Source: a virus
Taxonomy: Duplodnaviria; Heunggongvirae; Uroviricota; Caudoviricetes
Reading direction: 5' to 3' (one strand)
Length of the DNA: 15,498 nucleotides
IMG/VR virus record: IMGVR_UViG_2693429582_000026
Shown here: positions 7,170 through 8,735 of the stretch, piece by piece
How the letters are laid out: each line of letters begins with the position of its first letter
Numbering within the stretch: position 1 is the first letter of the stretch
Position numbers and translations under genes: made by a program
The notes under the pieces: generated by a model
What the model was told of the DNA's origin: nothing
Databases searched by the model: none
What the model saw: the letters and a program-made list of their open reading frames with translations, nothing else

Positions 7170-7867
7170 ACACTTGCTCCTTTCAGTCCGAACTTAGCTT
7201 TGAGTTCTGCGATCTTCGCCAGAGCCTGTGCACGATTTAGAGGTCTACCGCCCATGACAGGAAGTTGTTTTACTGGTTCAGGTATAGCCTCACCACGGTT
7301 AATTCGCGCTGTCATACAGGTCAGTTCATCGGCAGCCTTGCGCCGTAATTCCGCGTCAGTCAGCGCATTGGCTCGCATGTTCTGGTACAGGTTGGTAACC
7401 AGCCAGTAGTGCGCGTTCGATTTCCATGGATAAGACTCTGCGTCCGGATACAGGCCACGCTTCCGGCAATACTCGTAAACCATATCAACCAGCTCGCTGG
7501 CGTTTGGCAGCCCGGCGGTAACGGATGCTTCTTCCCGGCACCAGGCGACAAACTGCCCGGGTGATGGCAGGAATGGTCGATTCTGCCGACGGGCTACGCG
7601 CATTCCTGCGTTAACCTGTTCCATTGTGGTGATCCCGTTTTCCCGGAAAGCCAGCACCCACTGGCGGCGGATTTCGTTCAGTTCGTTCTGGTCCCGGTTA
7701 GCCAGGCTCGCCGGGAAAGTTGCCAGTAACTGGCTGAACACACCATTGATGATCTGCGCTACCTGTTGTACCTGCGGCTTTTCGTCGTACTGTTCCGGCA
7801 TGTTGTTGGCGATCCGACGCATCTGCTCACGGTCAAAGTTAACCATCTGTGCGGCGATGTTTTTCAT
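7166..7867 (-). CDS. P: Replication protein P (DnaB-helicase loader)
   Basis: 233 aa MKNIAAQMVNFDREQMRRIANNMPEQYDEKPQVQQVAQIINGVFSQLLATFPASLANRDQNELNEIRRQWVLAFRENGITTMEQVNAGMRVARRQNRPFLP... is essentially lambda P (memory). Confidence 0.95.
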   Translation of the reverse strand: MKNIAAQMVNFDREQMRRIANNMPEQYDEKPQVQQVAQIINGVFSQLLATFPASLANRDQNELNEIRRQWVLAFRENGITTMEQVNAGMRVARRQNRPFLPSPGQFVAWCREEASVTAGLPNASELVDMVYEYCRKRGLYPDAESYPWKSNAHYWLVTNLYQNMRANALTDAELRRKAADELTCMTARINRGEAIPEPVKQLPVMGGRPLNRAQALAKIAELKAKFGLKGASV

Positions 7868-8735
7868 AGCTCCACCCCGTAAATCCAGTCAGTGTTTGTC
7901 AGGTCGAGTTTTGGTTTTCCAGCTGTCACGCCAGCCTGTTGCTTGTTACGGTTGATTTCGAGTTGGGTCCACTTGTCGCGGAGTTTGGCCGGACTTAGCA
8001 CGTTACCGGACCAGAAGTTGTCCTGGCATGCCCAGCGGAACAGCACGCACATGTCGCGGTGGTTACGTCCGTCACGTTCACGCATCAGGCGGATATCGTT
8101 AGCCCACCCTGCAAAATTCGGTTTTCTGGCTGATGGTGCGATGGTCTTCACCATGTCAAACATCCACTCTGCGGCGTTCAGGTCTTCTGCTGTTCCCCAC
8201 TTGCTGCCGCTCTGAATTGCAGCATCCGGTTTAACCACAGAAAGATCGTTTTCTGGCTGGTCAGAGGATTCGCCAGAATTCTCGGACGAATAATCTTTTC
8301 TTTTTTCTTTTGTAATAGTGTCTTTTGTGTCCCCCTGTTTTGAGGGATGTCCCTCATTTTAGGGGAACCTCCCTCGTTTTGAGGGATGCACCATTCTGAG
8401 ATGTTTTTATTTGGTCCAAACATGCCGCCTTGCTGCTTGATAATATTCATTCTGACGAGTTCTAACTTGGCTTCATTGCACCGTTTGACAGGTAACTTTG
8501 TAATCTCGCTAAGTTGAGAATCGGTGATTCTGTCCATTGGTTTATTCCACCCATAGGTTTTACGCAGAATGGCAAGCAGCACTTTAAACTGTCGCTTGGT
8601 CAGATCTGCGCCTGAATAAGCCTCAATCAGCATATTTGATAGTCTGGCGTAACCATCATCGAGATCTGCCACATTACGCTCCTGTTCGGCAAAGTTACCT
8701 CTGCCGAAGTTGAGTATTTTTGCTGTATTTGTCAT
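7864..8735 (-). pseudogene. O: Replication initiator O, apparently frame-disrupted inside the ori iteron region
   Basis: Track ORF 8178..8735 (185 aa) matches the lambda O N-terminus (MTNTAKILNFGRGNFAEQERNVADLDDGYARLSNML...SEWCIPQNEG) then diverges. Track ORF 7864..8238 (124 aa) matches the lambda O C-terminus (VKPDAAIQSGSKWGTAEDL...WIYGVEL) in a different frame. The frame change maps to the iteron array (8330-8388). Confidence 0.75.
8291..8388. repeat. Lambda-type origin (ori): three iteron copies (8330-8388) plus the adjacent AT-rich segment (8291-8329)
   Basis: Iterons read on the - strand: ATCCCTCAAAACGAGGGAGG, TTCCCCTAAAATGAGGGAC, ATCCCTCAAAACAGGGGGA, next to an A/T-rich stretch. Lambda has four iterons (memory). 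Confidence 0.75.

Follow-up and report, generated by a model that had tools for sequence, protein, structure and literature searches.

Lambdoid replication modules and defective prophages related to the locus

Lambda-type O genes are characterized by an N-terminal Phage_rep_O domain (PF04492), an internal origin made up of arrayed 18-19-bp iterons and then an AT-rich tract, a P gene directly downstream, and a single continuous ORF that joins the N-terminal domain to a C-terminal P-interacting domain. The described systems closest to the locus we report here are the following. The lambda module itself (NC_001416 38686-39585): this has four iterons within an O gene that is one 299-aa ORF. The modules of Stx phages such as 933W (AF125520; PMC7466680): these possess a six-iteron origin (1'', 1', 1, 2, 3, 4), in which efficient binding is seen at the four AT-proximal iterons only, iteron 4 being the weakest of these, and the two distal iterons are bound weakly (PMC7466680). 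The laboratory lambda ori-/O- mutants (Rambach r95/r96/r98, ti12; RK- 'ilr'): in these, small deletions in the ori part of O abolish initiation. The deletions of the classical r mutants (12-24 bp) preserve the frame, and some of these mutants still make a trans-active O; RK- survivors of replicative-killing selection carry small out-of-frame indels in O, and truncated forms of O, Oam317 (160 aa) among them, are null (PMC6022878). The defective EHEC prophages of the lambdoid group, for example in O26:H11 11368 and O157 Sakai: these carry effectors and scattered inactivating lesions, and those of O157 Sakai are still excised, packaged and transferred with the help of co-resident prophages (PMC2669165).

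The locus described here comes from a prophage of E. coli O103 strain ML775 and is closest to the 933W module, with which it shares iterons 1 and 2 including their Stx-specific bases, the AT-rich region, P, ren and the upstream HK022/933W-type cII. It differs from 933W in lacking 67 bp (933W iterons 3-5 and the start of iteron 6), in having three iterons rather than six and in an O that is out of frame. It resembles lambda in its nearly identical N-terminal domain, its last iteron and its lambda-like cI and cro, but differs in its iteron 2 and in the type of its cII. Unlike the r mutants, its lesion is natural, out-of-frame (67 is not a multiple of 3), set in a six-iteron background and common to many wild strains. 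The prophage of O26:H11 11368 has the same 872-nt frameshifted O; unlike that copy, which lies between IS elements and no longer has an immunity region, the ML775 prophage retains its immunity, N, Q, lysis, head and tail genes along with intS and torI. We consider it highly probable that a 67-bp deletion in a 933W-type O has left this prophage with no functional initiator and no capacity for self-replication. A lesion of this kind is ordinary prophage decay, a pseudogene in a partly decayed element. It is also already known: public annotation marks the gene as frameshifted and its kind has long been familiar from lambda genetics, although we found no description of a three-iteron Stx-type O in the open-access literature.

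The ML775 prophage

The window analysed here, a stretch of 15,498 nt, corresponds with 100% identity to the reverse strand of NZ_CP193495.1 at 1483438-1498935 and contains the early region of a lambdoid prophage. Its gene order is: torI; the pL operon (kil, cIII, a superinfection-exclusion gene and N); lambda-like cI and cro; the HK022/933W-type cII followed by O, P and ren; the nin region with two antirepressor-like genes; Q; three tRNA genes; and the start of the late region. The whole prophage is ~50 kb long and lies between argW-intS and torI-dsdC, its integration site being argW/dsdC. Its lysis, terminase, portal, capsid and tail genes are apparently complete, and just outside the window it carries as cargo sodC, nleD and a DUF1076 (NleG-like) gene, together with one IS66-family insertion. 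The lesions seen in it are in O, in two or three accessory genes that are now pseudogenes, and at the IS66 insertion; apart from these it looks structurally complete. The first-pass annotation had called the lesion in O typical of cryptic or domesticated prophages. The element is partly decayed, but 'cryptic' overstates the decay of a prophage that has kept so much of its structure.

The 933W-type ori region is present in a single copy in the ML775 genome; hence, there is probably no resident helper O in this strain.

The far end of the prophage, at positions 7955-19978 of the piece NZ_CP193495.1 1513000-1545000, holds the cargo and mobility genes. These comprise sodC, an ISCro1 element (IS66-family) just upstream of gpJ, a lom-like gene, the DUF1076 gene and nleD, with intS adjoining the tRNA-Arg gene (argW).

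Gene O is divided between two reading frames

Gene O of the window (7864..8735, minus strand; NZ_CP193495.1 1490201-1491072) is 872 nt long, a length that leaves a remainder of 2 on division by 3, and is labelled 'replication protein, frameshifted' in RefSeq/PGAP (ACRHMA_RS07355). We describe it as a pseudogene of a 933W-type initiator with an internal 67-bp deletion. It has the features of a lambda-type O as regards the PF04492 domain, the iterons followed by an AT-rich tract, and the P gene directly downstream; the two domains, however, lie in two frames instead of one continuous ORF. The ORF list thereby confirms the division proposed by the first-pass annotation, with the N-terminal part in an ORF at 8178..8735 and the C-terminal part in another at 7864..8238.

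The first of these, ORF1 (8178..8735, minus strand), starts with an ATG and encodes 185 aa, of which residues 1-133 are those of 933W O and the remainder form a 52-aa out-of-frame tail that ends at a TGA at 8178-8180. It has E17 and I37, corresponding to the Stx-phage O substitutions Gly17Glu and Leu37Ile (PMC7466680). The Phage_rep_O (origin-binding) domain is recovered in it with E = 2.6e-36 at aa 22-115 (coding region 8391..8672, minus strand), and the match covers profile positions 2-95 of 95. Thus, the N-terminal domain is complete, which, along with the identity to 933W through residue 133, contradicts the earlier proposal of a truncated DNA-binding domain. The exact 185-aa protein is recorded on 29 contigs. 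To its protein cluster, draft genomes also contribute many O proteins of 82-248 aa labelled 'partial', which suggests that short-read assemblies commonly break inside O; draft assemblies are therefore no guide to whether O is intact.

The native C-terminal (P-interacting) frame extends over 7864..8358 (minus strand) as 164 open codons counted from a TAA in iteron 2. Its sole start-codon-bounded part is ORF2 (7864..8238, minus strand; 124 aa), which begins with a GTG at 8238; inspection by eye showed no convincing ribosome-binding site upstream of this GTG, and no Pfam domain was detected in ORF2. A PDB sequence search for an O structure with which to set the domain limits returned no match. 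Gene P (7166..7867, minus strand; 233 aa) is intact, and its ATG overlaps the native O stop (ATGA, 7864-7867). Since that stop belongs to a frame which is now disrupted, the coupling of P translation to O translation has probably been lost.

The disabled C-terminal frame also has substitutions unique to ML775 among the copies compared, at window positions 8177 (Thr to Asn) and 7869-7870 (Asp to Glu at the penultimate codon, overlapping the region just upstream of the P start). These fit relaxed constraint, though they are too few for a test of it.

A three-iteron origin derived from a six-iteron array

The iteron consensus has exactly three matches in the 15.5-kb window, all on the minus strand, at 8370-8387, 8350-8367 and 8331-8348 (0.01 expected by chance; none of 200 shuffles reached three). 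A repeat search recovers the same three, with spacings of 20 and 19 nt. The switch of frame had been placed inside an array of three iterons, and both searches bear this out. Iteron 1 (ATCCCTCAAAACGAGGGA; 8370..8387) is iteron 1 of 933W, termed 1'' in PMC7466680, and iteron 2 (TTCCCCTAAAATGAGGGA; 8350..8367) is 933W iteron 2 (1'), carrying the Stx-phage-specific bases. The distal pair as a whole, GGTTCCCCTAAAATGAGGGAC, is identical to that of 933W. The third iteron (ATCCCTCAAAACAGGGGGA; 8330..8348) is a hybrid: 933W iterons 3 and 6 share its first 12 nt, and the rest is derived from 933W iteron 6, which is ITN4 of lambda. Adjoining it is the AT-rich unwinding region (8289..8329, minus strand; boundaries following the lambda description in PMC3349717), which is retained and is identical to both lambda and 933W. 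Hence, of the six-iteron arrangement the window keeps 1'', 1' and 4.

Compared with the phage collection, the O gene is matched best by Stx-converting phages (933W, Stx2 phage I, PA28 and others), with ~99.5% nucleotide identity outside the gap, and each match falls in two pieces that span 939 nt of the phage. In a three-way alignment, the window O shows a single gap in the iteron array against either relative: it is 67 nt shorter than the 933W O (939 nt; six annotated iterons in its record) and 28 nt shorter than the lambda O (900 nt; four iterons), both differences being 1 mod 3. Elsewhere in O the substitutions number 23 against lambda and ~1-3 against 933W, the range reflecting disagreement between alignments over the last few codons. 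Iteron 2 with its spacers (GG-TTCCCCTAAAATGAGGGA-C) likewise matches 933W and not lambda. Since iteron 2, the spacers and the remaining bases of O all agree with 933W rather than lambda, the parent allele was the six-iteron, 939-nt O of Stx phages; a lambda parent that lost one iteron is ruled out by the 933W-type iteron 2 and the flanking SNPs.

In 933W, the 12-mer ATCCCTCAAAAC opens both iteron 3 and iteron 6, and the starts of these two are 67 bp apart (positions 1888 and 1955 of the 933W locus). In the window a single copy of this direct repeat is left, at 8337..8348 (minus strand), with iteron 2 on one side of it and the remaining 3' portion of iteron 6 on the other. This is the mark of a 67-bp deletion between the short direct repeats of iterons 3 and 6, with the loss of three iterons and, since 67 = 3 x 22 + 1, a shift of frame. 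The likely cause would be slipped-strand mispairing or unequal recombination. A prophage of strain RM9088 allows a close comparison: this Stx1a prophage likewise occupies argW/dsdC, its cro product is identical, its 939-nt O is intact, and the 67-bp gap is the sole indel between it and the window from cI to ren. The first-pass annotation, which compared the locus with lambda, was correct in attributing the disruption of the frame to a deletion within the array. The alignment it called for gives an indel of 28 nt and no single in-frame ORF. Its estimate of about 28 bp agrees with the net difference from lambda, but the event itself removed 67 bp and three iterons of a 933W-type parent, not the third iteron alone.

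Predicted consequences for replication and cargo transfer

On the proposed explanation, the ML775 prophage has the O-P-ren replication module known from 933W and other Stx phages, with its six-iteron origin inside O, in which the deletion removed three iterons and shifted the frame. Translation from the O start would then yield an intact origin-binding domain (residues 1-133) followed by 52 nonsense residues, and the P-recruiting C-terminal domain would be detached from it. Because O must connect the origin to the P-DnaB complex, and because O truncations are null, the split gene should give no functional initiator. What is left of the origin is the two distal iterons, the weakest proximal iteron and the AT-rich region. 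As the window retains 1'', 1' and 4, the best-bound iterons are gone and three of the four efficiently bound sites are missing, by the binding order from footprinting in PMC7466680. Some residual function in cis is conceivable since, according to Moore 1981 as cited in PMC7466680, three iterons were enough for lambda growth; such an origin might still act if O were supplied in trans. Most likely, the prophage would be unable to initiate its own theta replication after induction. The earlier suggestion that it may be replication-defective thus finds support as a probable consequence of the broken O.

The ability of the prophage to replicate affects the ease with which nleD, the NleG-like gene and sodC move between strains. 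Replication-defective, however, need not mean immobile. Because the defective prophages of O157 Sakai are mobilised with co-resident help, the lesion in O probably lowers, without abolishing, the chance of nleD and the other cargo moving; mobilisation would depend on low-yield excision and packaging, on a helper phage or on recombinational repair. As ML775 has no compatible O, only superinfection by a 933W-type phage or recombinational repair could provide such help. The lesion hence suggests that there is no self-amplification and that transfer of the cargo is rare unless a 933W-type phage superinfects or O is repaired.

Distribution of the junction allele and alternative explanations

A 44-nt probe centred on the junction (8327-8370) was searched in 5,426 complete E. 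coli genomes. It has 41 exact matches, including ML775, and a forty-second record matches at 42 of the 44 positions; a further 317 records have the six-iteron arrangement. The junction allele thus accounts for ~12% of the 933W-type arrays in complete genomes (42/359 records). It is absent from 50,697 phage records, in 72 of which the six-iteron arrangement is present. Eleven further junction-positive genomes were inspected: in all of these O is annotated as 'replication protein, frameshifted', and in nine it is 872 nt long. O26:H11 11368 has both the junction and the 872-nt frameshifted O, and in F8704-2 the gene is additionally interrupted by an IS3-family element.

Strain 13E0780 (NZ_CP020106.1; 2597-3507 of the locus) has the same junction in a 911-nt frameshifted O, with an extra 39-bp duplication of the first iteron pair ahead of the junction that brings the array to five iterons (1'' 1' 1'' 1' 4); therefore, the array keeps expanding and contracting.

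At least seven different repressor genes or immunity regions adjoin the allele, and in two further contexts the repressor has been deleted or severed by an IS element. Over the 3' half of O together with P and ren, the allele is linked to several distinct haplotypes, but SNP haplotypes of the nearly invariant N-terminal half of O have no power to separate a single origin from multiple ones. The same 12-mer could also support a deletion from iteron 1 to iteron 6 that leaves a single iteron; this alternative junction is found in none of the 5,426 complete genomes, which weakens the case for frequent recurrent deletion at the repeat. Taken with the varied immunity contexts and haplotypes and with the RM9088 comparison, its absence favours one or a few deletion events, which would have spread by homologous recombination among lambdoid prophages. 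We hence have one identical disabling allele in 42 complete genomes and many prophage backgrounds. This is a small, concrete example of module exchange in the pool of defective prophages and opens no new question.

Could this allele have been selected? It is possible to suppose, though we regard it as unlikely, that the deletion is favoured in lysogens, where it would end replicative killing and lytic loss and retain the cargo, and that the N-terminal O fragment together with the iterons might hinder incoming phages with the same origin, with the allele spreading by homologous recombination. In its strongest form this would make it a single ancient 'grounding' allele, beneficial to the host and passed through the lambdoid prophage pool of EHEC/EPEC, for which we see a small chance. 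If it were so, the allele would do away with replicative killing and thereby keep prophages with effector genes fixed in the chromosome, and the origin-binding O fragment with its decoy iterons might interfere with incoming Stx phages of the same replication type. The breadth of contexts in which the one junction occurs, including the repressor-less ones, and its share of the 933W-type arrays are in keeping with this, and the absence of the equally possible one-iteron deletion argues for the spread of one event. Moreover, O mutations are the classical survivors of replicative killing (PMC6022878), and plasmid-borne oop plus iterons inhibit rep-lambda phages (PMC3349717). That inhibition, however, depended on multicopy plasmids and on ITN3-4, of which ITN3 is missing from the window; ORF1, with pR as its promoter, is kept repressed in a lysogen. 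Further, to judge by their strain names and positions, about 30 of the 42 genomes seem to belong to one clonal O26-type lineage in which the prophage is obviously decayed. Exchange of modules is common among lambdoid prophages, and hitch-hiking explains the spread without selection. In any event, selection on the allele would not exclude our preferred explanation, a disabling deletion in a 933W-type O.

Iteron arrays are repeats and many drafts break inside O, as the 'partial' proteins noted above attest; hence, one might ask whether the ML775 array was collapsed in assembly from an intact six-iteron O. The recurrence of the junction in 41 other complete genomes (one at 42/44 positions), from several serotypes and laboratories, makes this very unlikely. 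In addition, ML775 holds only one copy of the region and so offers no second copy to cause mis-assembly, and a clean 67-bp loss bounded by a 12-bp repeat in our judgement resembles a biological deletion and not a base-calling error of the homopolymer type. We accordingly give an artefact scarcely any weight.

The broken frame could in principle also be mended in expression, by a -1 ribosomal or transcriptional slip in the A-rich tract CAAAAGAAAAAAGAAAAG (8295-8313) that restores a full-length, though shortened, functional O. The required shift is indeed -1, both frames are open over 8178-8358 (181 nt), and every 872-nt copy examined retains the same length. This zone of overlap has A-AAG and A6 motifs, on which tRNA-Lys of E. 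coli is prone to slip. However, it lacks any canonical X XXY YYZ heptamer in the ORF1 frame, for which reason we reject a programmed frameshift; it offers only the A-site-type motifs CAA AAG, AAA AAA and GAA AAG, and its longest A run is just 6 nt. Intact O genes of lambda and 933W all contain the same tract and do not use it to recode, and the allele is missing from all the deposited phage records searched; the absence of further decay is uninformative at 1-2% divergence. Restoration of O by recoding is hence barely credible.

Other features of the prophage

Beyond O, two further annotated pseudogenes of the ML775 prophage lie at 14160-14739 (plus strand): one is a Rad52/Rad22-family recombinase without its C-terminus and the other a homologue of DNA polymerase III theta with an internal stop. 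The lambda-type exo/bet/gam genes are present in the sibling RM9088 prophage and absent from that of ML775.

Between cI and N, the position of rexAB in lambda, is a 332-aa ORF with a TTG start (10288-11286, plus strand), labelled as a hypothetical protein by PGAP. Neither it nor its neighbours gave anything significant in Pfam or PADLOC, the aRib match (E = 0.003) falling under the cutoff. It may be an accessory or exclusion gene expressed in the lysogen.

The antirepressor-like genes of the nin region are two adjoining genes (3389-4920, minus strand; KilAC and P22AR C-terminal domain) in the ninE-ninG interval, and a third antirepressor gene is found outside the window in the lysis region.

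Downstream of Q (~1470-1880, minus strand), the RefSeq annotation has tRNA genes for Arg, Arg and Ile and a DNA methylase fragment. The sibling prophage of RM9088 has stx1a near the position of this tRNA cluster, and its counterpart in ML775 looks like a relative of an Stx1a phage that lacks stx itself.
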